Assembly: GCA_011939005.1 (NCBI GenBank)
Contig: GCA_011939005.1_4858.1
Length of the DNA: 64,000 bases
From: a phage
Strand: one strand, 5' to 3'
Each line of letters starts with the position of its first letter. The first letter of the stretch is position 1. Shown in pieces: positions 1,667 to 61,456 of the stretch. The notes under the pieces were generated by a model. The model ran no database searches, was not told where the DNA came from, and was given only the letters and a program-made list of their open reading frames with translations. The position numbers and the translations under genes were made by a program.

Positions 1667-3034
1667 TTAACGTAAATTAGCTGATGAGAATGGTAGGTTG
1701 CCTAAACTGCTGCTACTTCCGCCACCTAAACCACCCAGACCACCTAACACGTCACTACTCCCTCCTAAGAGGTTGGTGCTACCGCCGCCCAACTGCGTGC
1801 TACCCCCCAAGAGATTATTACTACTTCCCAGCAAACCAGAACCCAGACCACTTTCTTTCGTCACCGCATTACCACGCAGCGCTTCACCGAGAGACAGTTC
1901 TTTAATTGTCCCTTTCGGTAAATGGCCGTTGTTCTCACGCAGCGCTTCCTGAATCTTCGGTGCTAACGCGTTGAAGCTATTAGCTGAAGACGCCTGTTGC
2001 GCTTTCTTCGCACGGAAATAGTTTACCGGATCGTTGAGATCAAGATTTTCCTGCGGAGCTTGTTGAGAAGCTAAAGCAACGACCGGCTTTGTGCCGGCAG
2101 GTGTACGCCCGATACGGAAATCCGTTGCGGTGGTGTCTGTTGCCTGATCGGTGCGTGGGCCGGTATTATACGGCAGAGTTTGGATAACGTTATCATAAAC
2201 GCTCATGTTATCCAGTTGGCCAATCCATTCTTCTTCTAACGGACGCAGTGGAGTGTGGTCACGCAGACCACGAACCACTTGATTGTAGTTGGTCACGTAT
2301 TGTGCCCAACCGCGTGCCAAAGAACCGAAGTACGGACGCGGATCGTTAGAACCCGTAACCGAAGGATACCAACCAAACACTGCAGTGAGCAGGTTAAAGA
2401 TAATGACCTTATCCTGCTTACGCTGGAGCTTGGCACCGAAGAATGTTGCCGTACCATCCAGTGACTCTTCTTCAAACATGTGTTTGTAGTTCGCCACGCG
2501 GATATATTTGATACCTTCAATGGTCATATCGCTGGAGATGAAGATACTGGTGATCTTTGTCTTTTTATCTTCTTCCAGCAAACCGTAAACGTAGTTCTTC
2601 ACTGCGTGCCAGCTCTGAACCAGTTTCTTATCCATCGTCGGATCTTTCAGGTCAGCACAAACCACATCGCTTAAAAACTTCTTGTACGATGCCAGACGGA
2701 TATTTTTTCCTTCGGCTGCTGTTTCCAAAATCGCATCGATTAACTCGAAGCTTTTCAGGAAGAGGTTCGCGCTGATGGCTTTCTTCAGGAAACGAATCGT
2801 TCCAGATTCGCCAGCCAGTACCGATTCACACAGTGGGTGGAACGCATGACATTCACTACCTTCGTCATCTTCCAACCCACGCTTAATCATCGCTGCAGTT
2901 GGAAGCACCAAGCGGCGCTTCACTTTGTTGTAGGTGAACATTGCCGGATGACCATCATCGATGGTCAACATGTCACCTTCGAATCCGTATCCGAGCGAGG
3001 TCAGAAACGAACGGTAGAATTCAATCAATTTCAT
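1667..3034 (-). CDS. hypothetical protein with Gly/Leu-rich C-terminal tail (possible virion protein)
   Basis: 455-aa ORF; C-terminus LGGSTQLGGGSTNLLGGSSDVLGGLGGLGGG resembles tail of adjacent 3047..4747 product. Confidence 0.65.
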   Translation of the reverse strand: MKLIEFYRSFLTSLGYGFEGDMLTIDDGHPAMFTYNKVKRRLVLPTAAMIKRGLEDDEGSECHAFHPLCESVLAGESGTIRFLKKAISANLFLKSFELIDAILETAAEGKNIRLASYKKFLSDVVCADLKDPTMDKKLVQSWHAVKNYVYGLLEEDKKTKITSIFISSDMTIEGIKYIRVANYKHMFEEESLDGTATFFGAKLQRKQDKVIIFNLLTAVFGWYPSVTGSNDPRPYFGSLARGWAQYVTNYNQVVRGLRDHTPLRPLEEEWIGQLDNMSVYDNVIQTLPYNTGPRTDQATDTTATDFRIGRTPAGTKPVVALASQQAPQENLDLNDPVNYFRAKKAQQASSANSFNALAPKIQEALRENNGHLPKGTIKELSLGEALRGNAVTKESGLGSGLLGSSNNLLGGSTQLGGGSTNLLGGSSDVLGGLGGLGGGSSSSLGNLPFSSANLR

Positions 3035-3046
3035 GGTTAATAATCC

Positions 3047-4747
3047 TTAATCAATGAGACCGTTGCCGAGTCCGTTTCCGCCTATACCGCCTAAGCCACC
3101 ACCCAGGTCAAGACCTCCAAGAGGATCTAAGCCACCTGTGTTAGTTGGAATGTTAGATAGCATTCGACCCCGGCCTTGGCCTTTCTCGAATTCTGTATAA
3201 CCTTCTTCTACGGCTTTCAACAGCGTTGCGGTGTTCTGTGCCAGCTCACCAACGTATTTGAGATCGGTGGTGTTGCCGGTATGGAGACGGAATTGCATAA
3301 ACGACGCGTAGGTGTAATATTCCAGCGGTTCGTCGTCGACACGGATTTCAATACGAGTAACGGTCCCCAACAATGCGGTGACCAGCATGTGGCAGCGAAT
3401 ATGGTTATGTTTAGTAACCTGAACCATCGCTTCTTTCATGTTCTGCAAGAAACGACGACCTAACGCAGCAGGTAACTGATGGTGCGTGATGCTGCTGACT
3501 GAGTTAGGAATAACTTCCAGCGTAGGCTCTATCATGATATCTGTGTTGCGATTATCAAAGACAAAGCTCACTTCACCAATCAGGTTACGTGACATAATCG
3601 GCCCGATAGACATAGCCAGATCATACGCAACTAGACTACCCTGTGTGGAGAAGCCATTACGTCCAATCCAGTGGTCGGTTTGGTTAACCAGCCCTGCACC
3701 CAACCCACGGCGACTTGCCAGCGCCAGCGATTCACGGATACATTCATCCAACCGCATTGGGTTGACAATCGCATTACGCAAATCAGCCAAACGGAACGTC
3801 GCCTTACTGGTTGCTTTCCAACCGCCAGATACATCAGACATCCCGTTCTGGAGTGCTTGACGCATCGCAGCAATCAGTTCGTGGTTGCTGTAGTTACGGA
3901 TAACACCACGTTGCTTCAATTCAGATTCAACGCCGATGGAGTTATTACCTGCAAAGAAGCTTTCCACGCTACCGAGTTCGGTATCTACCCCAGAACTTGC
4001 CAGATACGCATTACTGATTGCAGATACGTAGTTTTCTGGACGCTGGAGTTGGGATACCATCAACTGTGGTGCAGAGCTACTGGTTGCGGATAGCACAGAG
4101 TCGCTCGTTGGGACGAACTTCTCACCGCTATTCATTTCAATACGTTTTACCATGTCCGCCGCTTTCGCGATCGAAATGATATCTACCGTACTTTCTGTTT
4201 GACCTTCAACAGACAACGCTTTCGATAAAACGTAGTTATCCAGTAGACGGAATGAGTCTGGGTTCAATGTTTTGCCGCCCAGGGCATCGTGTGTATACGT
4301 TGCCTGTAAGCCGTAGATGTCGTTAATGTACAACACCATATCGTCCGGCAGCAAGCTACCCAGGCTGGTTTCTGCCTGACTGGTATAACCGGAGACGATA
4401 TATTGCGTTTCCTGAGTGCGTGTTGCATTCAGAGGTTTGGCAATAAACACCGCCACGAAGTTAAAGATACCGGTATCACGTGATTCCCATTGGAACTGTA
4501 CAGGACGATTGTCATCATCGGACACGTTGATGAATGGACGCTCAAAACCATTCTGGGTGCCATCGAAGCCCACGATGGCAGATAATGCTTCTTGATACTG
4601 CTGTGTTCCCACAGCCTTTTCCCCGCCCAGTTCAACCGCTGCTGCTAAGTCATCCAGTGCACCCGTCGATGCGTTAAAGCCGATGCGGCGACGAACTTGC
4701 TCTGGAACATCGTAGACCGGATACATCAGTAGATTTACAAGCTGCAT
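3047..4747 (-). CDS. hypothetical protein with Gly-rich C-terminal tail (possible virion protein)
   Basis: 566-aa ORF; C-terminus GGLDPLGGLDLGGGLGGIGGNGLGNGL; tandem with 1667..3034. Confidence 0.65.
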   Translation of the reverse strand: MQLVNLLMYPVYDVPEQVRRRIGFNASTGALDDLAAAVELGGEKAVGTQQYQEALSAIVGFDGTQNGFERPFINVSDDDNRPVQFQWESRDTGIFNFVAVFIAKPLNATRTQETQYIVSGYTSQAETSLGSLLPDDMVLYINDIYGLQATYTHDALGGKTLNPDSFRLLDNYVLSKALSVEGQTESTVDIISIAKAADMVKRIEMNSGEKFVPTSDSVLSATSSSAPQLMVSQLQRPENYVSAISNAYLASSGVDTELGSVESFFAGNNSIGVESELKQRGVIRNYSNHELIAAMRQALQNGMSDVSGGWKATSKATFRLADLRNAIVNPMRLDECIRESLALASRRGLGAGLVNQTDHWIGRNGFSTQGSLVAYDLAMSIGPIMSRNLIGEVSFVFDNRNTDIMIEPTLEVIPNSVSSITHHQLPAALGRRFLQNMKEAMVQVTKHNHIRCHMLVTALLGTVTRIEIRVDDEPLEYYTYASFMQFRLHTGNTTDLKYVGELAQNTATLLKAVEEGYTEFEKGQGRGRMLSNIPTNTGGLDPLGGLDLGGGLGGIGGNGLGNGLID

Positions 4748-4759: not shown

Positions 4760-6394
4760 TTAAGAATTAAACCATTCAACTTCTTCTAACTTGCGACGTG
4801 CATTCAACACCATAAACTCCGCCAGGCTATTGTGCAGTGACAAGTGAGGTATATAGTTTGGCTGATCCGTCTCACACTTCAGCAGCGCAGCTGCTTCTGG
4901 TGTAGCCCTGAGATGGAACAGATACGGGTTGATGTGATCCTTGTGTAACAAGGTCAGTGATTCCCGTGGTGTAGATTGCGGTTCGAGATTACGCGGGTTG
5001 CGGTACTCCTGAAGATAATATCTATCTAAATCTGCTTTGAGTTCAGATCGAATTGGATCGGCTGCATAACCGGCAGACATCTCAGAACGCACCATATTGC
5101 AACTTAACAGTTGCGCAACGTCATACATTCCATAATTGAGATAAGTTGCCTGCGCCAACGCCATACCGTAGCGAAACGCTTCTGGTCCACATTCAGTATA
5201 CGTCTTATAATGCGCGCTACGATGGAGTGCTAATGCGACTAACCATTCATGCAACGTATAGACAGGACCGTCATGTGTTGCCAGTTGCGAATCAATCAAT
5301 AACTTAACATCTGCTGGAGCGGCATTATCCAGACGCATTGTTTTCAAGAAAGAGCGGTATTCTTTAAATACGTACTCGGTACGGACGTATTCTTTCATCT
5401 GTGCAGGAGAACGTGCCTGCACCAAATCCATGGCGTTTATCTTACCCTTTTCGCCATTGAATACCACACTTTCCGGATGCGCTTTTAACAGCACCGGCTG
5501 GTTAGAGATTTTGTTTGCAAAACCTGTTTCAATCTCTTGTTTAACCAGAAAATACATGCTGGTGACGATATTGTTGTTAACCATGATTTCAATCGGTAAT
5601 TCACCACCGACTTCACGGACAGCCAACAATTTAATAATAGCATACGCCAGGATATAATCTTCCATCATATCCGTGCCATAGCCCCGCACCGTAGCCAATA
5701 CCGACAAACTGGTGCTGTTCGTACCTTTGTTTGCCAGTTCTTTTTCTACCTTTTCCATCACTGTCTGTAGGAACCCACGCAGTTTCGGAATAGCAGGTAA
5801 AGACATGACTTCTGTGTCTTGAAGCATCTCCAGACAGTATGTCAGATTGTACACCATTTTCCGATGTGTTTCGATTGGCAAGTTCTTACCTATCGGGAAC
5901 GTCCCCATGGTGAGGAACACCGGAATATACGGTTTAATCATCAGGACCAGTATCAACAACTCGTAATAGTCCGGACGAATGTACGTCATCGCTTCCGGAT
6001 AATTACTGTTCATTTCATCGTGCGTATCTTCCATGTTCTGCGGAATCCACAGCTTATCGATGGGATACAGCTTACGATACACTTCAGCCTTGTGGAACTT
6101 CGCGATCATCTGCACAATCTTCGGCATGTGCTTACGCTGCGTTTCCGTCGATTCGTTTGCCAGCTCGTCCAGCATCAGATACGCCATGAACAGTTCATCT
6201 TGTTCGTCTGGCGTTAAATAATCCCACACGCGTTGTAATTCCATGAAGAGAATGTTGTCGCGTGCAATCTGTTTACCTTTAACAGTGATGTAGTCGGGTG
6301 CGTTGTTATCCTTCCGATAACGTAAGCCAATAAATGTGACCTCTTGACCATGATGCTCGATTGTCATCCGGTCTTTAATCTTCATAATTTTCAT
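4760..6394 (-). CDS. hypothetical protein (544 aa)
   Basis: Long ORF; GGAG RBS about 9 nt upstream of ATG at 6394; motif copy 35 nt upstream. Confidence 0.65.
   Translation of the reverse strand: MKIMKIKDRMTIEHHGQEVTFIGLRYRKDNNAPDYITVKGKQIARDNILFMELQRVWDYLTPDEQDELFMAYLMLDELANESTETQRKHMPKIVQMIAKFHKAEVYRKLYPIDKLWIPQNMEDTHDEMNSNYPEAMTYIRPDYYELLILVLMIKPYIPVFLTMGTFPIGKNLPIETHRKMVYNLTYCLEMLQDTEVMSLPAIPKLRGFLQTVMEKVEKELANKGTNSTSLSVLATVRGYGTDMMEDYILAYAIIKLLAVREVGGELPIEIMVNNNIVTSMYFLVKQEIETGFANKISNQPVLLKAHPESVVFNGEKGKINAMDLVQARSPAQMKEYVRTEYVFKEYRSFLKTMRLDNAAPADVKLLIDSQLATHDGPVYTLHEWLVALALHRSAHYKTYTECGPEAFRYGMALAQATYLNYGMYDVAQLLSCNMVRSEMSAGYAADPIRSELKADLDRYYLQEYRNPRNLEPQSTPRESLTLLHKDHINPYLFHLRATPEAAALLKCETDQPNYIPHLSLHNSLAEFMVLNARRKLEEVEWFNS
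5013..5027. promoter_or_regulatory. copy 2 of motif AGATAATATCTATCT, inside coding sequence
   Basis: Exact 15-mer plus 6 further identical bases (21 nt shared with copy at 6429) inside ORF 4760..6394, about 265 nt upstream of the start of 3047..4747. Confidence 0.3.
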
Positions 6395-6428: not shown

Positions 6429-6443
6429 AGATAATATCTATCT
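6429..6443. promoter_or_regulatory. copy 3 of motif AGATAATATCTATCT
   Basis: Exact 15-mer 35 nt upstream of minus gene start 6394. Confidence 0.45.
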
Positions 6444-15893: not shown

Positions 15894-15949
15894 TTTAAAT
15901 ATTCCTTAATAGTGATTGCAATCATAGTTCGGTTCGCAGAGATAATATC

Positions 15950-15964
15950 TGCCTGTAATTCCAT
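15950..15964. promoter_or_regulatory. copy 4 of motif (AGATAATATCTGCCT)
   Basis: 57 nt upstream of minus gene start 15893. Confidence 0.4.
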
Positions 15965-16032: not shown

Positions 16033-16047
16033 AGATAATATCAATCT
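16033..16047. promoter_or_regulatory. copy 5 of motif (AGATAATATCAATCT)
   Basis: 53 nt upstream of the probable plus gene start 16100, in a divergent region. Confidence 0.4.
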
Positions 16048-24907: not shown

Positions 24908-24922
24908 AGATAATATCTATGC
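24908..24922. promoter_or_regulatory. copy 6 of motif (AGATAATATCTATGC)
   Basis: In a divergent region, 31 nt from minus start 24877 and about 119 nt from plus start 25041. Confidence 0.4.
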
Positions 24923-25854: not shown

Positions 25855-25907
25855 AAAAAAAGAAAGATTCCGTACCTCTACGCAAGTAGAGGTACTTCTT
25901 CTTTTTT
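25855..25907. terminator. bidirectional intrinsic terminator
   Basis: GTACCTCTAC-GCAA-GTAGAGGTAC hairpin flanked by A-run and T-run. Confidence 0.6.
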
Positions 25908-27871: not shown

Positions 27872-27886
27872 AGGTAATATCTATCT
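27872..27886. promoter_or_regulatory. copy 7 of motif (AGGTAATATCTATCT)
   Basis: Lies between the terminator of the upstream gene and the start of 26862..27812. Confidence 0.45.
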
Positions 27887-29312: not shown

Positions 29313-29313
29313 T

Positions 29314-29382
29314 TGCTTTGACCGGACTCGAACCGGCGACCTTCCTCGATGAGGCTGCTCTACCTACCTGAGCTACAAAGCC
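29314..29382 (-). pseudogene. tRNA-like element, truncated (69 nt) with aberrant anticodon/variable region
   Basis: Minus-sense acceptor GGCTTTG/CAAAGC, D-arm GCTC-AGGTAGGTA-GAGC and T-arm GCCGG-TTCGAGT-CCGGT are good, but the anticodon stem has a mismatch and the variable loop is about 3 nt too short. Confidence 0.3.
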
Positions 29383-30408
29383 ATTGTTCATGACATCATG
29401 ATAGTTACACTCAACGTACCACACCCCTACTGGTTTCCGTTTCGGGGGACTTAACCAGACACCATACGTCCAAGGTCGACGCTTAGGTGTGTTATCAGTT
29501 GCATGACTGGAAATCTCTTACGAGACGTCTACGTTGAACCGGCAAGCCGGCCATGATGTGAAGATGGGGGAACGCCCAGGCTTCCGCCCAGTCGAGTGAG
29601 GTACGAATCCTTCACTCCAGTCATCACTGATGGTGACAGCGCTCCCATTGTAAGGTGCCGGTGCTTCCCGGCGTGTGTTAGTGCACTCAGCTCCCTCGGG
29701 CTTATCTGCGGCAACACGTTGCCCGGAGCACCGACATATACCACAGTAACCTCGTAAAGTCACTCTGGTATTGTTCGTTGCATACTACTAAGTTACCACG
29801 TAAACGATTTCATCACTTCCATAAATAATAATTAACCTAAATTCATTTCTGAATGCAGGTGATGGACTTCTTCTTCTGAGCCTGGCCGTAAGGTCAGGTC
29901 TTAGCGTCTCCAAGCACCACCCGCTATCACGCACATTCGTGGCGTACCGGCCGTATGAGGTACCGCGCCTACGGTGACACACAGTCACCCTAACACTGGG
30001 AACTCAATCCCATTCGGTTATCAAATTGTGGATTTACAGGCGTAGCGTAGCGGCTTAATGGGCCGGTGCTTGCCTGTCCCCTAGGGACGGTTGTCGTGGA
30101 GACGCCAGTCTGTAAGTGGGGCCCTTGCGGGAAAACCCATCGCCTGTAAACCAAACATGATTGAATACCCAGAACCGGACGTTGGAAATCAACATCCTGA
30201 TGTACTGGAGTATTTCATGCATAAACGTGTCTCGTATCGAATGAGGTTATGACCGGTCAGATACCCAGCATCCTGTACAAGCGACCTGGTGCTTTGTGTA
30301 CCTGGCTGCTACGGATTTATTGGTCTACCGTAGGTCTAAGCTACTACCGGCTCATGCGGGACATCAACCCGCACAATCTGAGTAAGTATCATGGCTCGAA
30401 TAGGGTTA

Positions 30409-30424
30409 GTGGGCCGAAGCCCAC
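30409..30424 (-). other. stable hairpin 3 nt after stop of 30428..30670, no U-run
   Basis: GTGGGC-CGAA-GCCCAC; possible RNA-stability or processing element. Confidence 0.3.
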
Positions 30425-30427
30425 TGT

Positions 30428-30736: not shown

Positions 30737-30812
30737 TGGCGGGGGCACGAGGTTTCAAACCTCGAACCTTCGGTTTTGGAGACCGGTGCGCTACCAATTG
30801 CGCCATACCCCC
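30737..30812 (-). tRNA. tRNA-Trp (anticodon CCA), CCA end encoded
   Basis: 76-nt cloverleaf: 7-bp acceptor, D-arm GCGC-AATTGGTA-GCGC, anticodon loop CTCCAAA, T-arm CGAGG-TTTGAAA-CCTCG; one C-A mismatch in the anticodon stem and T at position 56. Confidence 0.7.
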
Positions 30813-30940: not shown

Positions 30941-31411
30941 TTAAATCTCCTGGACTGGGCCACCCGTGTTGATATCAAACTTTGCAGCGATGCGAACAGC
31001 GTCTGCTGAACTCGCCCCTGCTGCCATTGCCCCGATTGCAAACTCGCAACCCGACCCAATCGCGACCGGTGGTTGCACAACCGCCATCCAGGGAAGTTCA
31101 TCGTCTTCGTACTGGCCGCCAGTGTACACAACACCTTTGTCCGTAATCGCGATGTACTTGAGCGTGATACCTTTGGGGAATCGGTGGTTGGACGTGAGAC
31201 CGTTGTAACTCGTCAACGCTTCATGAACCGCTTGTACGCCAACCAGTTTTCCAGCGACGCCATAAGCCACGATTTGATTACCATCCAAACGCCAGTTATC
31301 GCTGGGTTTGGCCATGAAGATTTTCTGCGTGTTCATGTCCAGGCGATAATCGCCTAAGGTCATCTGGCTGTCAGAAGCCAGGACTTTTCCGTCGAACGCT
31401 ATCGTCGTCAT
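30941..31411 (-). CDS. HslV/proteasome-beta-like N-terminal-nucleophile peptidase
   Basis: Start MTTIAFDGKVLASDSQMTLG matches HslV MTTIVSV...GDGQATLG; VAIGSG motif; ATG overlaps the upstream stop as ATGA (31408-31411). The track's longer N-terminus is probably spurious. Confidence 0.65.
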   Translation of the reverse strand: MTTIAFDGKVLASDSQMTLGDYRLDMNTQKIFMAKPSDNWRLDGNQIVAYGVAGKLVGVQAVHEALTSYNGLTSNHRFPKGITLKYIAITDKGVVYTGGQYEDDELPWMAVVQPPVAIGSGCEFAIGAMAAGASSADAVRIAAKFDINTGGPVQEI

Positions 31412-31983
31412 TGGGTCACCTTCCTCGGTGTGTACTCGAATGTCGTTTCCGTCAGGTAATCCTGGCGGATCCAAGTCAGCTCCTGGCCTTGCTCACACTT
31501 GATGTTCGTAACCAAACCGGCTTCAAGTGGTAGCTCACAGACCGAAACGATTCCGGGTTTATCACCGTCCCAATGTGCGAATGCCGCAGCAGGGGTTGTT
31601 GCCCCGACGATGATTCCGGAATCGACGTAGTCTTCGGTAGCGGCGTCGCTGTACACCAGGTACAGTTTGAGCGTCGAAGGTTGTTTAACCTGAAATCCGA
31701 AATACGTCTCGGTGTTGCCTGAGGGAAATTCCCAGGAATGTCTGGCAGGTTCGGAAACAAACTCCAAACCGGGATGGGAGTAATCTTCCCATCGGCCCAT
31801 CTTCAGGACTACGCCTGCAGCGACATCCGTTGTGGCAACTGGACCGTCGTAGCAGCACGCAACCGCTGGACGCTCTGCGCTAACCGGCCAGAAGGATTTG
31901 GCCTGCTCCTCGTTTTCGGCTAAGACAACCAAAACCGATTCTGGTACCTCGTTCCGGTAAAACCCGATGCGATACAAGTTCAT
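31408..31983 (-). CDS. hypothetical protein (191 aa)
   Basis: ORF translationally coupled to the HslV-like gene. Confidence 0.55.
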   Translation of the reverse strand: MNLYRIGFYRNEVPESVLVVLAENEEQAKSFWPVSAERPAVACCYDGPVATTDVAAGVVLKMGRWEDYSHPGLEFVSEPARHSWEFPSGNTETYFGFQVKQPSTLKLYLVYSDAATEDYVDSGIIVGATTPAAAFAHWDGDKPGIVSVCELPLEAGLVTNIKCEQGQELTWIRQDYLTETTFEYTPRKVTQ

Positions 31984-32932
31984 GGTTTAATTCTCCGTTT
32001 GGTTTATCATACCTCACGCAGAATCTGTAAATTTTAATCAGCCAGGTACTGGCGTTTCACAACGGGAGTACCCACCCCTCTCGTCTGTTCCGAGCCGTCA
32101 AGATCCGATCACCCCACTTTGGAGTTATCCCCCAAGTCTGCGGTTCTACACGCAGACCCCTTTTCGACGCAACGCCGAATTCGAATCAGTTTTGGCCCGA
32201 CGCCAGAGCGGAATCAGCGATAACTATCGGAGGTAAGTTCAACGACGTCTCTCCGCTGCCCAGTCCTCTGGCGCTGCCACGGTCAACTCGGATTTTGTCA
32301 TGGGTGCGCAGTCGACTTTCTCGACACTCTCGCAAACCGAACTACGCCCGACGTAGCACCGTCGGCAGGTCGGTTATTTACCGAGTACCTGAATGGGTGG
32401 TGATTGTCGGAATCCCCGCCGACGCTCACCGGTTCTGTTCCACGGCGAAAGTTTTCCAGAACATAATAAATCACGCAGTGTTAGATTGCGCTTTGTCGAA
32501 GACACCACGGTAGGTATTTTCGAAAAAGCGTCCTGGGTATCAGTCCCAGGACTTGGAGCCCTAGTGTGCAGGGTTTAAAAAGTGATTGGACCATTGGCGC
32601 GGTCAATCGCTATTCGCATATAACAACAAACTCACGTAATCAAAAAATTACCGGCTCGAGGCGTAGGCGTCCAGGAGCCGGTGAGTCACACAGCAGTGAG
32701 TCCCTCTGCGGGGATTTTCGTGGAGCTTGTCGTTGGAATAAAAATCCGTCCCCGGACGGGTTGGTGTTGTGGGTCGACTTGTCAGAGTCTACCTACCAGG
32801 GAGGCGACCACCAAAGCTATGGGTTTTTGGACATCGAGTGGTGGTCTGAACACACGATAGGGAAACCACGTAAAAAATACACAGGGTACCCGATCTCGGT
32901 CTTCCGTCCGATCACGATCTCTTAATAAGGAT

Positions 32933-33096
32933 CACGCGCGCGCCCGCACGCGTTTTAAGATCTTAATATATTAATATATTTATTTATATAAATAATTATA
33001 ATAATTAAATATAATACCTAAAGGTATTATTATATTTAATATTATTATATATTTTAAAAGATCCTGGAGGATACGGGTGCGCGCACGCGCACGCGT
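32933..33096. repeat. AT-rich imperfect palindrome flanked by alternating CG/CA tracts (candidate origin-like element)
   Basis: Core of about 110 nt, nearly pure A/T, with inverted symmetry about ATAATACC-TAAA-GGTATTAT (centre about 33020); GATC-containing ends; flanks CACGCGCGCGCCCGCACGCG and GGGTGCGCGCACGCGCACGCG. Confidence 0.5.
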
Positions 33097-33684
33097 ATAA
33101 GGAAAGGGTCTTCGACCCGATCCACAGGATCGATCTAAAAAACAATCTAAGTGATTGTTTTAAAAAGAAATTTTGAGAATTAGATTAAATTATCCCCTAA
33201 GGGGGATTTTAGAGTGAGTTAAACAACCCAAAGAACTCGTAAGTAACCGACAGTGTGTGTCGGTTACAGAACGATCCAGTTTTCACCCAGACATGGCACG
33301 AAGTGCTACCCAACGTGTGATCGTCGCGGCGACCGGCGACCGTCGTCCCGGAACCGAAACGGGAATGGCTCTCTCGCGCTCTCAGCGGCCCGCTGGCGCG
33401 ATTTTCCGGTAGGGGGAACCCAAGTGTACTGGGTCAGTTATAAATCTCGTTCTAGCGCTTTCTAGAGCGTTTTTAATAACCGGTTAAAAAACATACAATC
33501 CTGAATCCCCATTCCCCGTATTTCCTCGCCCCGACAAAAATAAATTCACCGACTCGATGCAAGACCCCCTCTAAAACGCACGTAATTGACCCTAGAAAAC
33601 GATAAACTATCAAAAATGAGCTACCCTACATCCAGACCACTTAATCGTTTTCTGGTGTTTCCTAGACCTCTTTAATCGGATGGT

Positions 33685-33735
33685 TAAAAAAACAAAAAAA
33701 ATAAGATTGGCGTACTCCCCGAAGAGAGTACGCCT
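33685..33735 (-). terminator. intrinsic terminator
   Basis: GGCGTACTC...GAGTACGCC hairpin followed (minus sense) by a long U-run. Confidence 0.55.
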
Positions 33736-33741
33736 AGTGAC

Positions 33742-34296
33742 TTAACACTTGATGGTGTAGCCATCAAGGCCAAGGTGTACTGGTTTTATCCATAACCCTG
33801 GCTCCCCGAAAATATTCAGGTCGTAAGTTTGGTAATGCATGATCTTTGCAGGAACATGCACACCCATGCGTTGCAGAAATTCCCAGACGGCGACGTAGCG
33901 TTCACGAGTGATGAACATTAGCCCGGAGTCGAACCCGGAACCGATGTCTAGGAAATTACCAAGAGAACTGTCAAAACTTGACACCCCATCTTGAGTAAGT
34001 GCGACCAACCCTTTAGTTAAATCTCTGTGGTTGTCAATGAAGTTACAGAGATCTACGATGGTTATTTGACCGTAAATACGACGGAGGACGGCAGCAACAG
34101 CCAAAATCTCGCTGGTATTTCCGTAGTCACCTAAAGGGTTATGGTCCATCATCGCAGTAATTATGCTTGTGTCGCAGAGGTCGATTAACCGCTGGTCGTG
34201 TACCACCAGGTTAAGACCTTGCTCCACCTGCACGGTTGGCGCAGTAAACATAGGAGGCTCCTTACGTTTTGACTGACTGTGAAGGTAATCTGGCAT
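33742..34296 (-). CDS. hypothetical protein (start possibly ATG 34251)
   Basis: Track start overlaps the upstream gene; internal ATG (MFTAPTVQV) removes the overlap. Confidence 0.55.
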   Translation of the reverse strand: MPDYLHSQSKRKEPPMFTAPTVQVEQGLNLVVHDQRLIDLCDTSIITAMMDHNPLGDYGNTSEILAVAAVLRRIYGQITIVDLCNFIDNHRDLTKGLVALTQDGVSSFDSSLGNFLDIGSGFDSGLMFITRERYVAVWEFLQRMGVHVPAKIMHYQTYDLNIFGEPGLWIKPVHLGLDGYTIKC

Positions 34297-43465: not shown

Positions 43466-43475
43466 AGTGGGCCTC

Positions 43476-44381
43476 TTACTTGATGTTCAGTGGTTTGGTG
43501 TTTTGATTCATCAGAAGGTTGTATGTGAATTCAAACTTATCGCGTTTCTTAGCGGTGTCTGACTTCTTCACAATCCCACCTAACCGACTGCGGTTAAACA
43601 TGTTATTATCCAGACAAGCCTTAATCATAACGAAGAGACTAGGCGGATATTCGATGGCGCTGGTAGCGAGTTGTTTTTCATAACTCACCCCGAAGAAGCT
43701 GGTATTCAACATCTGCTGCAGAGACAGAATGCTCAGGTCACGCACCCGCGGAGTGATATCTGCAGCCTGCACCATTTCGACGAATTCTGCGATATTACGC
43801 GGGAAAAGATATTCTGTGTGGCCTGTCACTGATTCAAACAGTTCCGCAGGTAAGCCTAATTGTTGCTCCAGCATCTGCTGCAAACGTAAAGCTTTCACAT
43901 CATCTTCGACGTGATTATAGAACTGTCCCACAGAGAACAATGCAGCCAACGCTTTGATTTGCCCACTTTGATATGGAGCAAGTGCAAACGTGTGGGTAAT
44001 CGCATCCGACACCCATTTGCTGAAAATCTCATGGTGGTAGGGCATCTGTGCCATCAGTGCAGCAAGCTTACCATTACTCCGTTTCCACACCAATTCCCAG
44101 CGAGCCTGGTCGAGACGCAATGCGTGTTCGACTGGGTTTCGTATTTTTAGCTCGTTGGTCTTATCCAGCGTGGTAAACGTGGCTGCGTATACATAAACGT
44201 CGTCGCCGATAACAATCGGCAAAGGAAACGGTTTTACATCAGCGGTCTCAACAACGTAATGAACTTCATCGGACTGTGAGACAGTTTGGTTAAGTTTACG
44301 GGCTAATTCCAGGTCTGCCTTGGTGCGAGTAAGGTCAAGTGCATTAAAGGGATTACCGCTGTAAGCGTTTTCGAGTGCCAT
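43476..44381 (-). CDS. hypothetical protein (start revised to ATG 44381)
   Basis: Track start 44543 would overlap the divergent sheath-like gene; AAGGA 9 nt upstream of ATG 44381 (MALENAYSGNPF...). Confidence 0.55.
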   Translation of the reverse strand: MALENAYSGNPFNALDLTRTKADLELARKLNQTVSQSDEVHYVVETADVKPFPLPIVIGDDVYVYAATFTTLDKTNELKIRNPVEHALRLDQARWELVWKRSNGKLAALMAQMPYHHEIFSKWVSDAITHTFALAPYQSGQIKALAALFSVGQFYNHVEDDVKALRLQQMLEQQLGLPAELFESVTGHTEYLFPRNIAEFVEMVQAADITPRVRDLSILSLQQMLNTSFFGVSYEKQLATSAIEYPPSLFVMIKACLDNNMFNRSRLGGIVKKSDTAKKRDKFEFTYNLLMNQNTKPLNIK

Positions 44382-50494: not shown

Positions 50495-50509
50495 AAGTAA
50501 TATATATCT
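50495..50509. promoter_or_regulatory. copy 8 of motif (AAGTAATATATATCT, degenerate)
   Basis: Lies between the upstream terminator-like hairpin and the start of 50039..50437. Confidence 0.35.
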
Positions 50510-55589: not shown

Positions 55590-58500
55590 TTAGTTGATTT
55601 TAGCCGGCAAGGCTGGGACGTCTTCACCATCTAAGATGCGTCCGATATTCTCCCCACCACGATACCCGACAGCGTTGGTGGTTCCGATGCGCATGATAGA
55701 ACCTACGATACGTGCGTCGACGGAATCACGACCAAAGATAATGTCGAGTTCCTGCCCGTCTTCCGTTTTGTTGGTTCCATACATCACTTCCTGAACCGTC
55801 GTTTTCAGCTGGTTAGCAATAACCATCTTATCCGCTGCTGCCATCTCTACCCGGTGTGTGATGTAGAATCGGACACACAGGCTATTGTACGCTAACGGCA
55901 CCCCCTCAACACGAAAATCACCGTTGACTCGACCGTCCTTCGGCTCGTCACGTTTGAGAGCCAGCGCAGTCTTCCGACGTATACGGTCGTATTTACGAAC
56001 CATCTCCGCCAAAGACGGGGTCATATCTTCCACCTCGCCGTGGTAAACCACTTCGATTTTGTCGATAAACCCACGAACACCAGAGCGTGGTGCAAAGGAG
56101 CTTAACTCACGCAGCGTTTCCGCTGCTTCTTTACTGAACCCGCTCATATCGCCGGTCAGGTTGTCGGTGAAGGTGCATAGAATTGAATCCACGTCTACGT
56201 GGTCCCCTTCTTTTACCATCTCCAACAGGTTCTGGGTAAACGTCATTGTGACTTCTTTGAGTTTGGTAACATCGGCTTCAGCCTTAGCAGCGAACCGCTC
56301 ACTAATGGCGTTGGAGTCCTCAATTACTTCTTCCCCTTCAATCAAAGCGACAGTTGCCAGTATCCCGTTTTTAAAACTGACCTGCGTTGGATCGTAGATG
56401 TCTGGTTCAAAGTGTTGTTCGTTGTACGTGATAACGGCACCGGCAGGGAGTTTATCTCCGCGCTTCCATTTCGTTACCAGGGTGTGTGGGTAGTAAGTCC
56501 CTTCGTGTGGACCGAACCAACGGCCCAGTGGGAAAGCTTCTTCCTCTCCGTCGTCGTATTTGATTTTAACGTGGTCGTTAAGAACCTCCACAATCTTGCC
56601 TGGTTTATCGATTACGCGTGCGTGCTTCACAGAAGTACGGTGTGCCACGAACTTTTCTTGCTCGGTACGATACGGTGTGGTGGTTGCGCCAACACAACTG
56701 GTCGCAGAACCGAATTGAATCCCAACGAAGTTCTGACGCTTAGCATCGTCCATCAGGGTATCCGGCACCAAGCCATCAATAAATGACAGTGCCTCACCTG
56801 GCTTCAGTTTATCGAGGTCCTTTTTAAAGGTCGTGCCGTCCACGGTGTCGTAACGCGGATTGTTTGTTGCAAAGGCGGTGATACCTACGTCGCCGTTATC
56901 GACCGTGTTACCGGAGATAATCCCCAGGTCGCTCGGTTGGAATTCACGGGTACTGTATACCATGGTTTTGCGGTTACGACCACCTGTACCGCCCATGGTA
57001 ACGACATCTTTTTCTTTGATGTTCTGTACCGGGTTTGCGCCAGGAGCCAGCAGAACAGACGGGTCGGAGTTAATTGCACCCCACACCATGTCCTGCGTCA
57101 ACTCAAACTTACGATTTGAGTTAGGCGCGTTGTTGTAGTTACGCATCGCCCGCACCATCGCGGTGTAGATGTGATACGAAATACGTTGGTTCCCGATGAA
57201 CATCATTTCGTCACCGTTAATTTCCGGTAACGTGTGGTCCGTCTGCAGCAGTTCGTTAGAACGCTCCAGTAAGCCGATAAAGGTTTCCGGCTCGCCCATT
57301 TTCCTGAGGATACGCGCGTGCATGTCATCAACAAATGCGGTCCGCATCAGTTTCAGCTCTTTGATGTAGCGTGGTGTTAGCCCATCTGCATCGCGTAACA
57401 GGTTCAGATAAATGTCTTCCCGGTCAACTTCCGACTCGGTATACGTGGTAAAGTGTTTGATGTAACGGTCTAAGCCGTTGACAATCATCCTCTGTTGATC
57501 GTTCTCGCAGACAATTGCAATTTTCGCATCCTGGAGACGAATAATGGAGTCGAACTGACCTTTATCGATACGTTGTCCGACAGAGAGAACCTCGTAACTG
57601 ATACCAAAGTGTTTCAACATCCCGGTTAACCCGAGATAGTACGAAAACACAAAGCCCAGCGAGATTGATTTGCCCATCAGTGACAGTTCGGTCATTTCTC
57701 GTGGAGCCTTAGAGGTGTCCACGCCAAAGACCTCGGCGAGTGTACCCAGTGGTTCGGTCTTATCCTTATCCACTCGATAAAGCTGGGAGTTTTTATCCAT
57801 ACCGACGATGACATGACTCCGCGGTTTCTTCGCCACAGGTACCAGCTCGACACGGTCCGCGTCTGCCAGTTGCCCTTCGTTAAAGAATGCCGCTTTCTGT
57901 TTAATGTCAAAGTTCCATTGGTACCCAATTGCGTTGAACGCTGCTACACGACGTGCCACCTCGGTGTACTGACGCGGCAGTTTAGACAGCGGATCGAACA
58001 CATTCGCCAGTTTTGCATCAGTGATTTCGGTGTTCTTTGGATCGACCGCGCGAGTAATAATCGCATTAGTGAGCCAACGTCCGTAATCATTGACGACTTT
58101 ATCACTGCGACGGACAAAGTTCTTCCCGTAGGCAGTGGTTAACGCTACAGTATCGTGGGACACTTTACGGATAGGAAGATCAACGCGCTGACGACGCATT
58201 GTATATTCTACACCATTCGCAACCCAAGTACCGTCTTCGGTTAATGCAGGAATTGAGAAACGTACCGTGGTTGGTTCTCCGCCAATCGGCTGAATACGCA
58301 ACGTGTGGTGTTCGATATTCCCGGTAACGGAAATCTCTTTCTCGACAGTGTGATTGTGAATCGCTAAACCAAGACGTTGGGATGACGCTACTGCCCCCAG
58401 AATATCTTTCGGGAAGATTTCCTGGTTGTACTGACGAATGATTTGGTCGGTGGTATTTTCCGCCCAGGCTTCATCCGTAACTAAGCGTTCAATCTTCTTA

Positions 58501-59795
58501 GGCTCGGCTTTAACTTCGAGTTTCTTAGGATCGATGGTCAGACCTTCGCCGTACGTCTCTTTAGGATTGTACGGGTTGGGTAAGTTTACGAAACGTTTAG
58601 AAGATTCGTTCAGGAACTGATACGCTTTGGCGGTGACGCGGCCCGCTTCTGCCAGGCGCTCAACTTCCTGTTTAATCACAGCATCGTGTGGGATGGTGCG
58701 TTCTACGACGATGGTGGTTGGTTTGACATCTTCTTTCGGCGCTTCGATGACCAGATCTTCTTTCTCATCGAACTCATGATCGTTCAATATATCGTCAACG
58801 TTGTCGCTTTGTGTTGCTTCATCGTCGACGATATCGAGGGTTTCTTCCGGTTTACTGGCAACGGCTTCAACAACATCGTCGTCCTCTCCCAGATGTACGC
58901 GTTCGTCCCCTTCCGGTGTAACGAACTCGTCATCTTCGTAGTCGGTAGACGGCGGTGTGGTCATCACAGTAGTCAGTGTACGGTAGAACATTCTGCCCAT
59001 CTGCACGTCAGTCAAACGACCGCCGGCAGACTTACGCATTCTTTCAATTACACCCATGTTCATGGATGTAAAACCACCGTTGTGCGTGAAGATAAAGTTC
59101 ACACGTGACAGCTGGTTCATGTCCATACCGTCAAACAGGGTTGCTTGCTGATCGCCGTAAGCCCAACCGAACAGTTCCAGTAACCACAGCAGGTTAAAGT
59201 CCTTAAAGCGCTCCAGTTTGGTTTTAACACGATCGTTATACGTCATTTTAAAACGATCGAAAGAAGGCAGTACGTTACCCAGTTCGATGATGTAGTAGTT
59301 CTGACGCATGTACTCACGTGAGTCAGTTTTCATCTGGTTAGTTATCAGCAGCTGAATGTTGTGCAGACGTTCGTACCAGGACATCAGAGTATCAGGGTAG
59401 AAATAATGCGGCAGCATCGGGGTGTAGTTTTCGATGAGCAGCACTTTCGGATCTGAACGCACCACACCATCTTCAATCATGCGACGAATACGACGGTTGT
59501 TACGATGGTACTGGAAGATTTGACGTTCTTGGCCAACAACAGGTTTCTTACGCGGATGGCCAATAATGCCGTCTTCAGGTAGCTGGAAGTGATGGCGAAT
59601 CATCGCCGGTTTTTCCAGCTGGCCAAAACACGGTGTAGTTAACGGCGGCGCTAAAACCACCTGGTCTAAATCGATGGTGTGGTAGATAGAACCACGTGGG
59701 AGCTGGAGCTTCTCCAGCGGGATAATACGCGGACGACCGAACTCATCGGTCTTGCGCACGGTAAAGCGCTGGTTAAACTGTTTCAGAAAAATCAT
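55590..59795 (-). CDS. multisubunit RNA polymerase beta-like subunit (1401 aa)
   Basis: GTWVANGVEY (compare beta GTFVINGTER), GGTGGRNRK...TVDNGDVGI (compare GPGGLTRER...ETPEGPNIGL), KRGDKLPAGAVIT (compare GDKMAGRHGNKGVIS), in the same N-to-C order as bacterial beta; directly downstream of a beta-prime-like gene. Confidence 0.5.
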   Translation of the reverse strand: MIFLKQFNQRFTVRKTDEFGRPRIIPLEKLQLPRGSIYHTIDLDQVVLAPPLTTPCFGQLEKPAMIRHHFQLPEDGIIGHPRKKPVVGQERQIFQYHRNNRRIRRMIEDGVVRSDPKVLLIENYTPMLPHYFYPDTLMSWYERLHNIQLLITNQMKTDSREYMRQNYYIIELGNVLPSFDRFKMTYNDRVKTKLERFKDFNLLWLLELFGWAYGDQQATLFDGMDMNQLSRVNFIFTHNGGFTSMNMGVIERMRKSAGGRLTDVQMGRMFYRTLTTVMTTPPSTDYEDDEFVTPEGDERVHLGEDDDVVEAVASKPEETLDIVDDEATQSDNVDDILNDHEFDEKEDLVIEAPKEDVKPTTIVVERTIPHDAVIKQEVERLAEAGRVTAKAYQFLNESSKRFVNLPNPYNPKETYGEGLTIDPKKLEVKAEPKKIERLVTDEAWAENTTDQIIRQYNQEIFPKDILGAVASSQRLGLAIHNHTVEKEISVTGNIEHHTLRIQPIGGEPTTVRFSIPALTEDGTWVANGVEYTMRRQRVDLPIRKVSHDTVALTTAYGKNFVRRSDKVVNDYGRWLTNAIITRAVDPKNTEITDAKLANVFDPLSKLPRQYTEVARRVAAFNAIGYQWNFDIKQKAAFFNEGQLADADRVELVPVAKKPRSHVIVGMDKNSQLYRVDKDKTEPLGTLAEVFGVDTSKAPREMTELSLMGKSISLGFVFSYYLGLTGMLKHFGISYEVLSVGQRIDKGQFDSIIRLQDAKIAIVCENDQQRMIVNGLDRYIKHFTTYTESEVDREDIYLNLLRDADGLTPRYIKELKLMRTAFVDDMHARILRKMGEPETFIGLLERSNELLQTDHTLPEINGDEMMFIGNQRISYHIYTAMVRAMRNYNNAPNSNRKFELTQDMVWGAINSDPSVLLAPGANPVQNIKEKDVVTMGGTGGRNRKTMVYSTREFQPSDLGIISGNTVDNGDVGITAFATNNPRYDTVDGTTFKKDLDKLKPGEALSFIDGLVPDTLMDDAKRQNFVGIQFGSATSCVGATTTPYRTEQEKFVAHRTSVKHARVIDKPGKIVEVLNDHVKIKYDDGEEEAFPLGRWFGPHEGTYYPHTLVTKWKRGDKLPAGAVITYNEQHFEPDIYDPTQVSFKNGILATVALIEGEEVIEDSNAISERFAAKAEADVTKLKEVTMTFTQNLLEMVKEGDHVDVDSILCTFTDNLTGDMSGFSKEAAETLRELSSFAPRSGVRGFIDKIEVVYHGEVEDMTPSLAEMVRKYDRIRRKTALALKRDEPKDGRVNGDFRVEGVPLAYNSLCVRFYITHRVEMAAADKMVIANQLKTTVQEVMYGTNKTEDGQELDIIFGRDSVDARIVGSIMRIGTTNAVGYRGGENIGRILDGEDVPALPAKIN

Positions 59796-59813
59796 ACATG
59801 TGCCTTATGGGTA

Positions 59814-61427
59814 TCATTTCAACAGCGCAGCAGTCGTTCTTTTAATCACGTTGTTAACCGGATTGATTTTGAAACTGCCGTCTGTTGCAAACCAGTAGTT
59901 TTTCGAACTGACCCACTTCCGATTTTCCTCGAGCGCTTCGGTTGACATCGGGCAGTTTGCTGAGCCGGTGTCACCATCGTAGTCACCACCCAATCCACCT
60001 AATCGGGATGGATGTGGTGCCATGGATTCCACAAAGGTTTTCACGGTACGGTCAGGGAAACTAATTGCACCCTTCTCTTTTAACGTGACCCAATCGTCTT
60101 CCAGTTCATGCAAATAGAGGGAAGAAGTGGTGGTCTCCAATCTTATGGTCGAGGAGTAAGTCGAACCGCGTCCCGTAACCGGATAACGCGTGATGAACGA
60201 GAAGTAGTCATTCCAAATATCGTAACCTGACAAATAGAGGAGTTCTGCTAAGCTCAGTCCGCGGACAAGCTTACGGTCACGTCCTTCCGGCAGGTCTTCA
60301 ATATCGTAAAAGATTTTGAAGCTGCGTTTGTCTTGGTAGATTAATGCCACGTAATGGTCCGGATCAATCATCAGCGGTTTATGTCGAAGCTCGCGCGCTT
60401 CCATTCTGTTGATGAGTGTTTCGATGCCATCGTCGGTAGTGAAAAGGTCATACACCCGCCCGGAGACTTCCAGGAACTCACGCTTGAGTGTTTTGGTGTT
60501 AACGCCGTATAAGTTGCCGTCCCCTGCCCGGATGTTACTGAGGTAACGTTCACGGATGTGGTATTGCGCCACAGGCAGTAATGCCTTCAGGGTTTGGTAC
60601 AAACCGATACGGGTATCCGTTGGACGAATCGCATCTTCGCGACCCATGACCTTGGAACCGGTTGAGAATGAAGACAGCACGTTACGCGTACCGTTCATTA
60701 ATTTACGTGACGTCACTTTACGACGTGCAAAACCACCTTTACCGTCTTGGATGTTGAAGAAGTACATCCAGATGTCATTAAAGGTTTGTTGGAGCTTCCA
60801 GCGAACCGGGTCAGTCAGTTCCGTTCGCGTACTGCGGTCGGGGATTGCACGTGCCAGAGAAATCAGACGGCGGTAGAGTCCGCCAATCTCTTCTTCTTGG
60901 TCGCGGCCATCCTGACGAATGACCAAATCACGTAATCCTGCAGGCAGAACCAGCACATAGCGGCTGAGACTGACCGGACGGAACTTATTGAAGAAATCGA
61001 CTGTCTCGTCGCGACGCATCGACTCGTTGCGTCCCGGAGTCAGTTGTTCGTAGTAGCGTAGGAAGAAGTTGAAGCCGGTGTCTGCACCTTTATCACTGGG
61101 CAGAGCCGGCTCGAAATCTTTTTCTTTCTCATTCCAGATAGCGAATCGCTTCCCGGAACAGATTTCTTCGTACAGCTGTTTCAGCTGGAACAGTGCCAAA
61201 CAAACGGTCGGCGAAATGATATCCAGTTTGATATCAATGTACGAGAACGTTGAGTCTCGTGCCTCGCTCCCTGTGAGGCCAAATATTTCGGTTGAATACA
61301 GTCCTTCAGGGTGAAAGTTTTTCGTCAGTCCCTGAAAGGTGTCTGTTGTTGTAACTGGTTTTAAATGCGACACCAGGGACTTGTTGACGTTTAACAAGTA
61401 AAAGTCAACCCAGTTTAGCTTTCTCAC
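59814..61427 (-). CDS. multisubunit RNA polymerase beta-prime-like N-terminal subunit (intronless paralog)
   Basis: EGLYSTEIFG (compare DGLFCEKIFGP), LPAGLRDLV...GGLYRRLISLA (compare IPPDLRPLV...DLNDLYRRVINRN), catalytic GDYDGDT (compare NADFDGD); ends about 40 aa after the catalytic motif. Confidence 0.7.
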   Translation of the reverse strand: MRKLNWVDFYLLNVNKSLVSHLKPVTTTDTFQGLTKNFHPEGLYSTEIFGLTGSEARDSTFSYIDIKLDIISPTVCLALFQLKQLYEEICSGKRFAIWNEKEKDFEPALPSDKGADTGFNFFLRYYEQLTPGRNESMRRDETVDFFNKFRPVSLSRYVLVLPAGLRDLVIRQDGRDQEEEIGGLYRRLISLARAIPDRSTRTELTDPVRWKLQQTFNDIWMYFFNIQDGKGGFARRKVTSRKLMNGTRNVLSSFSTGSKVMGREDAIRPTDTRIGLYQTLKALLPVAQYHIRERYLSNIRAGDGNLYGVNTKTLKREFLEVSGRVYDLFTTDDGIETLINRMEARELRHKPLMIDPDHYVALIYQDKRSFKIFYDIEDLPEGRDRKLVRGLSLAELLYLSGYDIWNDYFSFITRYPVTGRGSTYSSTIRLETTTSSLYLHELEDDWVTLKEKGAISFPDRTVKTFVESMAPHPSRLGGLGGDYDGDTGSANCPMSTEALEENRKWVSSKNYWFATDGSFKINPVNNVIKRTTAALLK

Positions 61428-61456
61428 TTTTAAGCTCCTGAATTGGAAGAAACATT

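Follow-up and report, generated by a model that had tools for sequence, protein, structure and literature searches.

What function could 1.7 kb of DNA without a gene perform in a phage genome, and do the stem-loops crowded into it mean anything at all? The question is raised by positions 31984-33741 of a 64,000-nucleotide (nt) stretch of phage DNA, referred to here as the window, which comes from an SPN3US-like jumbo phage (Seoulvirus). An initial annotation, made from the sequence alone, had described these positions as non-coding and dense in hairpins. We favour the explanation that the region is a conserved RNA locus of the minus strand, in which an array of terminators or attenuators and of hairpin units surrounds a DNA palindrome and ends in a leader RNA of ~265 nt (MOD, 32027-32290) that would act in cis on a downstream unit containing an HslV-like gene and tRNAs. 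Taken as a whole, this explanation has in our judgement an even chance of being correct.

That the region is genuinely free of protein-coding genes, as had been proposed, was confirmed. Its longest open reading frame (ORF) has 119 amino acids (aa; 32566-32925, plus strand); five further ORFs were considered, and all six longest are disrupted by frameshifts or stops in relatives at 92-96% identity. A tblastn comparison of 38 neighbouring proteins of relatives with the region returned zero matches. The region matches 63 phage records, all of them SPN3US-like jumbo phages (hosts Salmonella, Escherichia, Proteus and Erwinia), and the 22 records that cover it at 92-97% identity have zero features annotated there. 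Elsewhere, 'hypothetical protein' ORFs that overlap the locus have been deposited, namely Huxley gp278 (L007 655..1068) and ORFs of phiEaH2 (L004 3455..3583 and 3814..3933), pEa_SNUABM_29 (L002 4515..4793) and Kwan (L006 1851..2042 and 2267..2464). These ORFs have no conserved counterpart, some lie over MOD itself, and they are probably annotation artefacts, which knowledge of the locus corrects.

In at least six lineages a gap of 1.3-2.1 kb occupies the same position, with the same sets of genes on either side. Within Seoulvirus its carriers include Erwinia phage pEa_SNUABM_29 (67% identity) and SPAsTU (72%); the other carriers belong to Erskinevirus (phiEaH2), Machinavirus (pEa_SNUABM_9, Huxley) and Wellingtonvirus (Kwan), or are several uncultured genomes and a 221,873-bp Escherichia coli 'plasmid'. 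The order of the blocks is kept across these lineages, though the flanking proteins are merely 45-60% identical, and the alignments consist of invariant words in constant order, interspersed with hairpins whose stems are lineage-specific. The tRNA clusters of the relatives occupy the same place beside the locus, on the same strand. Such comparisons establish the whole region as one homologous locus across genera, a relationship that the initial annotation had missed.

The left-hand end of the locus contains MOD, which is predicted to be a multi-helix RNA. RNAalifold, applied to 12 sequences from at least four genera, gave -73.1 kcal/mol for the minus strand and -39.4 for the plus strand; the minus-strand fold has 60 pairs, 24 of them compensatory, while many positions turn into C-A mismatches in the plus-strand fold. 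In the MAFFT alignment of the 12 sequences 95.5% of the cells are paired, and none of 500 shuffles matched the observed covariation; when the partners were slid by 1-3 columns as a control, pairing fell to 37-48% and the compensatory pairs to 3-6. A covariance model built from MOD finds exactly one copy per genome, at 32 loci in all, and recovers lineages outside its training set (a Wellington-like group at ~103 bits, the E. coli 'plasmid' at 141 bits). Among 25 distinct rows 96.8% of the cells are paired and 31 of the 60 pairs are compensatory. Strand assignment by folding energy was dropped, as only MOD was consistent (11/11) and the signal was largely compositional, and counts of G-U against A-C were used instead. 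At the helix positions of MOD, G-U occupies 188 cells and A-C 13, and the plus-strand reading of the same helices is only 83% paired. This strand call is independent of base composition. Covariation thus establishes both the predicted fold of MOD and its strand.

Read from its 5' end, the predicted fold begins with a long-range closing helix. Enclosed by it are a 12-bp helix with a branched tip and the invariant loop AACUUAC, the invariant hairpin GAAUUCGGCGUUGCGUCG and the hairpin GTCTGCG..CGCAGAC (32136-32157). Next is a hairpin in which an upstream word resembling an anti-Shine-Dalgarno (anti-SD) sequence pairs with the SD-like word GGGGUGAUCG (32105-32115; GGAGGUGAUCC in relatives). The structure is completed by an invariant 28-nt word, UUGRCGGCUCGGAA(C)AGACGAGAGGGG (32073-32101), which holds a 4-bp hairpin (32080-32094), and by a strongly covarying terminal hairpin of 14 bp (32040-32077). 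Its conserved features include a small hairpin with a purine-rich loop (CUCG-GAAAGA-CGAG).

Does MOD belong to a known family? A scan against Rfam on both strands, a check that the initial annotation had asked for, gave no relevant family match, either for the whole window at gathering score or for 31700-34000 on both strands at E <= 10 (cmscan, 4227 families), and the Kwan locus (L006) gave none either. The matches at E <= 10 are all at chance level, such as a miRNA and isrC with 23.8 bits against a gathering score of 39. The invariant word of MOD was found in none of 185,579 species genomes of bacteria and archaea. Because no Rfam family matches, the word is absent from these genomes and no paper on the locus was found, MOD appears to be a new family or variant among the structured leader and non-coding RNAs of phages, with a function that we infer.

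The scan also bears on a suggestion that two words of the region echo the Q and R elements of a group I intron. The words are present, AATCAGCGA at 32212-32220 and GTTCAACGAC at 32237-32246, with a spacing of 16 nt and not the 18 nt given. They lie on the plus strand, while the conserved structure is that of the minus strand, and the R-like word GTTCAACG is the complement of the invariant MOD loop AACUUAC. No match to Intron_gpI was obtained at either scan setting, no gene is interrupted, relatives conserve no ORF that lies in the region or spans it, and the genes on either side are complete. We therefore rejected a degenerate group I intron.

The remnant of an intron is one form of a broader view, according to which the region is decaying DNA, a set of pseudogenes or a recombination scar, whose hairpins arose by chance or are mere terminators. 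This view can be judged from the census of hairpins. All hairpins that had been listed from the sequence are there, at or within a few bases of the place given, namely GTCTGCG..CGCAGAC in MOD, (G)TCCTGGG..CCCAGGA(C) at 32530-32552, CCGGCTC..GAGCCGG at 32651-32681, GGGTCTTCGACCC at 33106-33118, ATCCCC..GGGGAT at 33192-33207, GTAACCGAC..GTCGGTTAC (hpE) at 33243-33267 and the hairpin before TTTTT at 33448-33475. Outside the palindrome there are seven perfect stems of at least 7 bp, compared with 1.5 +/- 1.2 in dinucleotide shuffles (maximum 5, n=200); equal-sized tiles elsewhere in the window have up to six of them (mean 2.5). The 14 stems of at least 6 bp are inside the genomic range, as would be expected of junk, and folding energy is unremarkable and uninformative by itself (z = -0.76 and -1.68). 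The left boundary of the region is, moreover, a recombination breakpoint in one relative. Terminator-like sites number 11 against 3.3 +/- 1.8 expected, and nine of the 11 are on the minus strand. Hairpin density alone is thus weak evidence, and it is conservation together with compensatory change that makes the observation real. Covariation in homologous phages was the test that the initial annotation had proposed, the absence of conserved structure in relatives being what would have spoken against it. Conserved structure was found: several of the listed hairpins are kept in homologous phages with compensatory substitutions. The block order kept in at least six lineages around flanking proteins of 45-60% identity, the words of up to 28 nt without variation and the dozens of compensatory pairs all contradict decay; no protein similarity remains that would betray a pseudogene, and a remnant of an intron is opposed by the lack of an Rfam intron match, by Q- and R-like words on the non-structured strand and by the lack of an interrupted gene. 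Chance hairpins, decayed genes and the intron remnant are rejected, and we regard this whole group of explanations as highly improbable.

The breakpoint just mentioned was seen in phage MET_P1_082_240 (L001), where the DNA identity of 96% sets in precisely with the start codon of the left-hand gene (boundary at 31984-31986 of the window). This phage has a different, 163-aa HslV-like paralogue (L001 5507..5998) where the window has an ORF of 191 aa, and the end of the RNA locus is therefore a recombination boundary.

Several of the listed hairpins belong to a second class of elements, predicted terminators in which a GC-rich hairpin is followed by a U tract on the minus strand. T0 (33690-33734; hairpin GGCGTACTCTCTTCGGGGAGTACGCC and a long U run) would terminate the gene upstream of the region, and in 11/11 aligned relatives the upstream gene, be it homologous or inserted, is followed by the same kind of hairpin with U8-9, the stems differing. 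T1 (CCGUCCGGGGACGG followed by AUUUUUAUU, 32746-32759) and T2 (CCGGCUC..GAGCCGG followed by UAAUUUUUU, 32651-32681) make up the part at 32640-32759. T2 is present in all nine aligned sequences that have the segment, with three different stem sequences and the U run retained. T3 (GUCCUGGG..CCCAGGAC followed by GCUUUUUCGA, 32530-32552) is directly followed by an 18-bp hairpin, HP4 (32489-32530, inverted repeat I9), the U tract of T3 doubling as the 5' arm of HP4. The pair of T3 and HP4 forms in the separate folds of 11/11 sequences; the stems of T3 vary by lineage, with one G-U pair in L003, and HP4 hardly varies at its base (CUUUUUCGAGA / UCGACAAAGC). T2 and T3 recur in Seoulvirus, Erskinevirus and Machinavirus with different stems. 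Multi-genus alignments (MAFFT with RNAalifold) of the whole locus and of T2 only misaligned the variable hairpins and gave few helices, and folds of the single sequences were used instead. T0-T3, found by a terminator scan, thus have the build of intrinsic terminators, and the conservation of hairpin plus U tract is established by these comparisons; that three of the hairpins are such minus-strand elements had not been recognized before.

Between HP4 and MOD lies a leader segment (32291-32488, minus strand) with a conserved CCUAACAC(U) and a U-rich part ending in UAUG (32462-32465). Its blocks, of which ..AGAACCGGUGAGCG.. and CACCACCCAUUCAGGUACUCGG are shared with Erskinevirus, are conserved in the Seoulvirus, Erskinevirus and Machinavirus groups and in the E. 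coli 'plasmid'. In phiKZ, TATG overlapping the start site is an element of the late promoter (PMC7598289). Given this resemblance, the transcript of MOD might start at position 32462.

Beyond the palindrome lies the R-module (33225-33500, minus strand; 262-301 nt in all lineages), which would be a second unit of conserved RNA hairpins. Copies of (C)ACUUUUUAACC mark its two ends in most relatives; in the window the 5' copy is at 33482-33490 and the 3' copy is degenerate. Besides hpE it contains GC-rich stems, a covarying hairpin at 33448-33469, the block GACGAUCACACGUUGGGUAGCACUUCGUGC (33296-33325) and an invariant hairpin, hpP (ACCCAGUACACUUGGGUUCC, 33415-33434; consensus ACCCRGUACACUUGGGUUCC). 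An alignment of 11 sequences from four to five lineages has 18 pairs in three hairpins, eight of them compensatory. In hpP, G-U pairs are present in 7/11 and 9/11 sequences and would be A-C on the plus strand. The element that the initial annotation called terminator-like, a hairpin followed by TTTTT near 33454 (33448-33475), belongs here. Its hairpin is indeed conserved; its reading on the plus strand is doubtful because the G-U pairs of the neighbouring hairpin and all neighbouring genes point to the minus strand. Between the R-module and the palindrome, the stem census and the terminator scan gave three short conserved hairpins of the minus strand, AUCCCCCUUAGGGGAU (33192-33207), AACAAUC..GAUUGUU with a U run (33139-33161) and GGGUCGAAGACCC (33106-33118). 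In Erwinia relatives the stems at 33106-33207 are swapped for other complementary sequences, for example GGGAT..ATCCC and CCCGCC..GGCGGG.

The order of genes around the locus is in keeping with transcription of the minus strand. The first gene downstream is the 191-aa ORF (31408-31983, minus strand), followed by an HslV-like peptidase and tRNA-Trp (30737-30812, minus strand), which is 1.2 kb downstream of the region. Upstream lies a gene for a phrog_9731 protein (33742-34251, minus strand), and beyond it are a 377-aa protein, a virion protein and the terminase, whose gene is ~3.4 kb from the locus. These neighbours and the tRNA are all on the minus strand, the virion protein excepted. Annotation of the flanking proteins with Pfam and PHROGs gave no functional clue. 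Farther downstream, in a low-coding stretch at 29-31 kb, positions 29313-29382 (minus strand) have an Rfam tRNA match of 37.7 bits, above gathering score, with a shortened anticodon loop and no call by ARAGORN; this may be a degenerate or unusual tRNA.

How would these elements work together? We propose that the locus is read from the minus strand, in the direction of its neighbours and of the tRNA genes beside it, and acts mainly at the level of RNA. Minus-strand transcription is supported by the neighbouring genes and tRNAs, by nine of the 11 terminator-like sites, by the conservation of T2 and T3, and by the G-U pairs in hpP and T3. T1-T3 and HP4 would stop or attenuate transcription that comes from the side of the palindrome, and MOD therefore probably starts at a promoter of its own, for which the UAUG at 32462 is the candidate. 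MOD would be the 5' leader of the next unit, which comprises a small gene or an HslV-like paralogue, the HslV-like gene and the tRNAs, and most likely controls the read-through or the translation of this unit in cis. Short structured RNAs that derive from 5' untranslated regions (5'UTRs) and are bounded by terminators are abundant in phiKZ (PMC10914365). The end of MOD is 15-51 nt from the start codon of the next minus-strand gene at every locus examined, and no hairpin with a U run follows it at these loci.

The SD-like word of MOD deserves separate consideration. The 3' end of 16S rRNA, whose sequence is well established, is complementary over up to 12 nt to the consensus of the word, GRGGUGRUCCA, whose variation keeps wobble pairing; none of the genes of the window uses such an extended SD. 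A UUG located 10-14 nt past the word opens an upstream ORF (uORF), and a leader peptide was rejected as the selected feature because the uORF varies in length (5-53 codons) and frame. Since neither is conserved, the constraint is on the RNA. The hairpin that sequesters the word could be the expression platform of a riboswitch-like leader, although what follows the word is this uORF and not the annotated gene.

Several observations speak against the leader explanation. First, no promoter was identified in the region, and an early-promoter-like motif, AGATAATATCTATCT, which has eight copies elsewhere in the window, does not occur in it, so that transcription would be middle or late or by read-through. 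The library searched holds no paper on the locus, on the transcripts of SPN3US-like phages or on their origin, and this gap in transcript data counts on the same side. Second, MOD is predicted to fold no more stably than its shuffles do (z = -0.76), the lower folding energy of the minus strand is largely compositional, and strand evidence outside MOD is thin. Third, the SD-like word is degenerate in the E. coli 'plasmid', and the short uORF that comes after it shifts in frame and length between lineages. Fourth, MOD has no consistent link to one gene family or pathway: the first gene downstream is, depending on the lineage, the 191-aa ORF, the 163-aa HslV-like paralogue, one of several unrelated proteins of 104-129 aa, a 245-aa protein or the HslV-like gene. 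This variation argues against a gene-specific riboswitch. Finally, in Kwan and Wellington a cassette with an HNH endonuclease and a terminator of its own splits MOD, so that either each half of it can act without the other or these phages can do without an intact MOD.

The copies of AGATAATATCTATCT (1270-1284, 5013-5027, 6429-6443, 15940-15954, 16033-16047, 24908-24922, 27872-27886 and 50495-50509) form an extended AT-rich motif with the near-palindromic core AGATAATATCT. They are mostly intergenic, the copy at 5013 lying inside a predicted gene, and always have plus-strand orientation though adjacent genes point either way; the motif is probably the early-promoter motif of the virion RNA polymerase of the phage. 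As to the HNH cassette, it occupies positions 1205-1800 of the Kwan locus (L006), with the same arrangement in Wellington (L062), and consists of its own ORF and a hairpin-plus-U8 terminator. It is inserted beside the invariant 28-nt word, duplicates a GGUGAUCC-like word, and resembles an element that has homed into a highly conserved site of an RNA gene.

Some of the same observations can be read in another way, namely that MOD and the R-module are free-standing, stable non-coding RNAs (ncRNAs) that act in trans and extend the tRNA cluster, comparable with GOLLD and ROOL or with the two stable RNAs of T4. Their candidate targets would include the translation apparatus, as suggested by the word complementary to the 3' end of 16S rRNA. 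The position of the locus, which in every lineage adjoins the tRNA cluster and shares its strand, the similar size of the two units (~265-290 nt) with their invariant loops and covarying stems, and the variable downstream gene agree with such a role, as does the pairing of GRGGUGRUCCA with an anti-SD-like word where no gene of the window uses such an extended SD. On the other hand, MOD has no 3' terminator and abuts the ribosome-binding site of the next gene, its SD-like word is degenerate in the E. coli 'plasmid', and neither GOLLD, ROOL, HEARO, raiA, OLE nor any other Rfam family matches. We consider trans-acting RNAs unlikely.

What remains to be explained is the element in the middle of the locus, an AT-rich imperfect palindrome at 32933-33100 (inverted repeats I1-I8, direct repeat D4). 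Every lineage has kept its core (32955-33065), which consists almost entirely of A+T. In its GC-rich flanks purines and pyrimidines largely alternate, and its bordering words, CAGGATCTTTTAAAAG and CGCGTGATCCTTATTA in minus-strand reading, are almost invariant. Where the inner hairpins differ between lineages, the changes are compensatory and preserve them (ATATCCCGTAGGGATAT; AAACTCTTTGAGTT vs AAACCCTACGGGTT vs ATACTACTACGTAGTAGTAT), and the folding energy of the palindrome has no strand preference. It coincides with a cluster of GATC (Dam) sites that had also escaped notice, nine of them at 32892-33135, five to the left and four to the right of the AT core. Nine sites per 300 nt compare with ~0.7-0.8 expected and with no more than four in any other part of the 64 kb. 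The densest 300-nt stretch for GATC (6-8 sites, mean 0.4-1.0) is at the palindrome in 11 of 14 related loci, and the cluster is absent from three Machinavirus-group loci. Judged by sequence features, palindrome and Dam cluster, which belong to neither strand, are probably a separate element at the level of DNA, be it an origin, a packaging start or a promoter region.

The whole locus could accordingly be seen as a replication origin or a site of packaging initiation, with the palindrome as the core for unwinding or cleavage and the GC-rich flanks and Dam sites as regulators. The hairpins and RNAs would then serve as primer or R-loop transcripts, as binding sites of an initiator or as insulating terminators. 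Dam-site clusters are known to mark oriC of enterobacteria as well as oriR and pac of P1, and the nine sites per 300 nt (~0.7 expected; cluster in 11/14 loci) fit such a site. So do the nearly pure A+T palindrome with GC-rich flanks in all lineages and compensated inner hairpins, the invariant words of 26-28 nt, which suit recognition by a protein, and the terminase gene ~3.4 kb away. The motif TTTTTAACC is repeated two or three times in a single orientation (minus-strand copies at 33682-33690 and 33482-33490, a degenerate third at 32572-32584), and elsewhere in the 64 kb it has one copy only, on the plus strand at 25903. A 2026 review describes no origin for these phages, which leaves room for one here. 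However, the cumulative GC skew declines smoothly over 31-35 kb and passes the locus without inflection, its sole turn in the window being near 58 kb. The contexts of the GATC sites (CGATCT, CGATCA, GGATCA, AGATCT, AGATCC, CGATCC and GGATCG) include none of the P1 hexamers TGATCA/G and none with a 5' T, as a P1-type pac would have, and the three Machinavirus-group loci do without the cluster. MOD would be transcribed away from the palindrome, unlike a primer of the ColE1 type, and its RNA-type, strand-specific G-U covariation is not predicted by DNA sites or cruciforms. GenBank records that start inside the region were rejected as a sign of physical ends, since base pair 1 is set by convention and not by mapped ends (PMC6256631). 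An origin or packaging site is in our view rather unlikely as an account of the whole locus. As a separate observation, the skew changes sign near 58 kb while the genes stay on the minus strand (~57000-64000); non-coding gaps just past this point are at 61651-62307 and 62857-63672, and others are at 43466-43910 and 29764-30427.

The DNA and RNA elements could also be combined. The locus might be a control centre for DNA replication or packaging of the SPN3US-like, nucleus-forming jumbo phages, in which a Dam-marked, cruciform-prone palindrome is placed between two structured RNAs of ~270 nt. We hold this to be quite unlikely; if it were true, MOD would be a new class of large RNA with an internal SD/anti-SD mimic, and the 28-nt word would double as the target of a homing endonuclease.

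The distribution of the locus extends to bacterial assemblies. The E. coli 'plasmid' (NZ_CP173450.1, strain 98232, 221,873 bp; L078) carries at 147300-156372 the whole locus and flanking phage genes: a terminator, a hairpin unit, a pure A+T palindrome of ~190 nt, a GATC cluster, T3 and MOD (141 bits). This 'plasmid' is therefore the genome of a jumbo phage of a further lineage, contained in a clinical E. coli assembly, and a search of E. coli returned this record only. Two exact-word scans of IMG/VR gave mostly chance matches, and loci L067 and L075 are chance matches. Structured ncRNAs of virulent phages are poorly catalogued, and the locus provides a sequence-defined set of elements across several genera, consisting of a covarying RNA of ~265 nt without an Rfam family, a second hairpin unit, conserved terminators and a Dam-marked palindrome. 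The invariant 28-nt word and the covariance model can be used as markers of these phages in metagenomes and bacterial assemblies.

Comparison with known systems helps to place these elements. The palindrome resembles oriC, P1 oriR and P1 pac in its AT-rich core with dense GATC on both sides (9 per 300 nt) and in belonging to phages of Dam-positive hosts; unlike them it has no DnaA boxes, no P1 hexamers and no switch of GC skew, and its core is a long palindrome. GOLLD and ROOL (RF01998, RF03087) and the stable RNAs of the T4 tRNA region are large structured ncRNAs of phages, typically located beside tRNA genes. Our locus shares with them that it is phage-borne and tRNA-adjacent (tRNA-Trp 1.2 kb downstream on the same strand). 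In contrast to GOLLD and ROOL it gives no covariance-model match at E <= 10 and occurs in enterobacterial jumbo phages, and MOD is smaller, borders directly on a coding gene and does not end in a terminator.

For our preferred explanation, the cis-acting leader, a likeness is found among the regulatory RNAs that precede long operons, such as leaders of the riboswitch type and those of processive antitermination (put of HK022, boxA/boxB of the lambda nut site and EAR of Bacillus). Like them, MOD immediately precedes the first gene of a long unit on its own strand, in which genes for structured RNAs are included, and it has a multi-helix covarying fold, invariant single-stranded words and a small hairpin with a purine loop. 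Unlike them, MOD matches no curated family, and its role as a cis leader is predicted from sequence only; as the downstream gene varies between lineages, no logic of ligand or gene is apparent. These phages transcribe with RNA polymerases of their own (PMC7598289), and mechanisms of the host Nus or RfaH type therefore need not apply. The RNAs of phiKZ, a phage of a different group with no detectable sequence relation to this locus, are single elements of 70-250 nt known from transcript data (PMC10914365), whereas the array described here spans 1.7 kb and comes from comparative sequence alone. What the two have in common is a jumbo phage with its own RNA polymerases, in which hairpin-plus-U(A)-tract terminators lie inside leaders and short structured RNAs are conserved among relatives.

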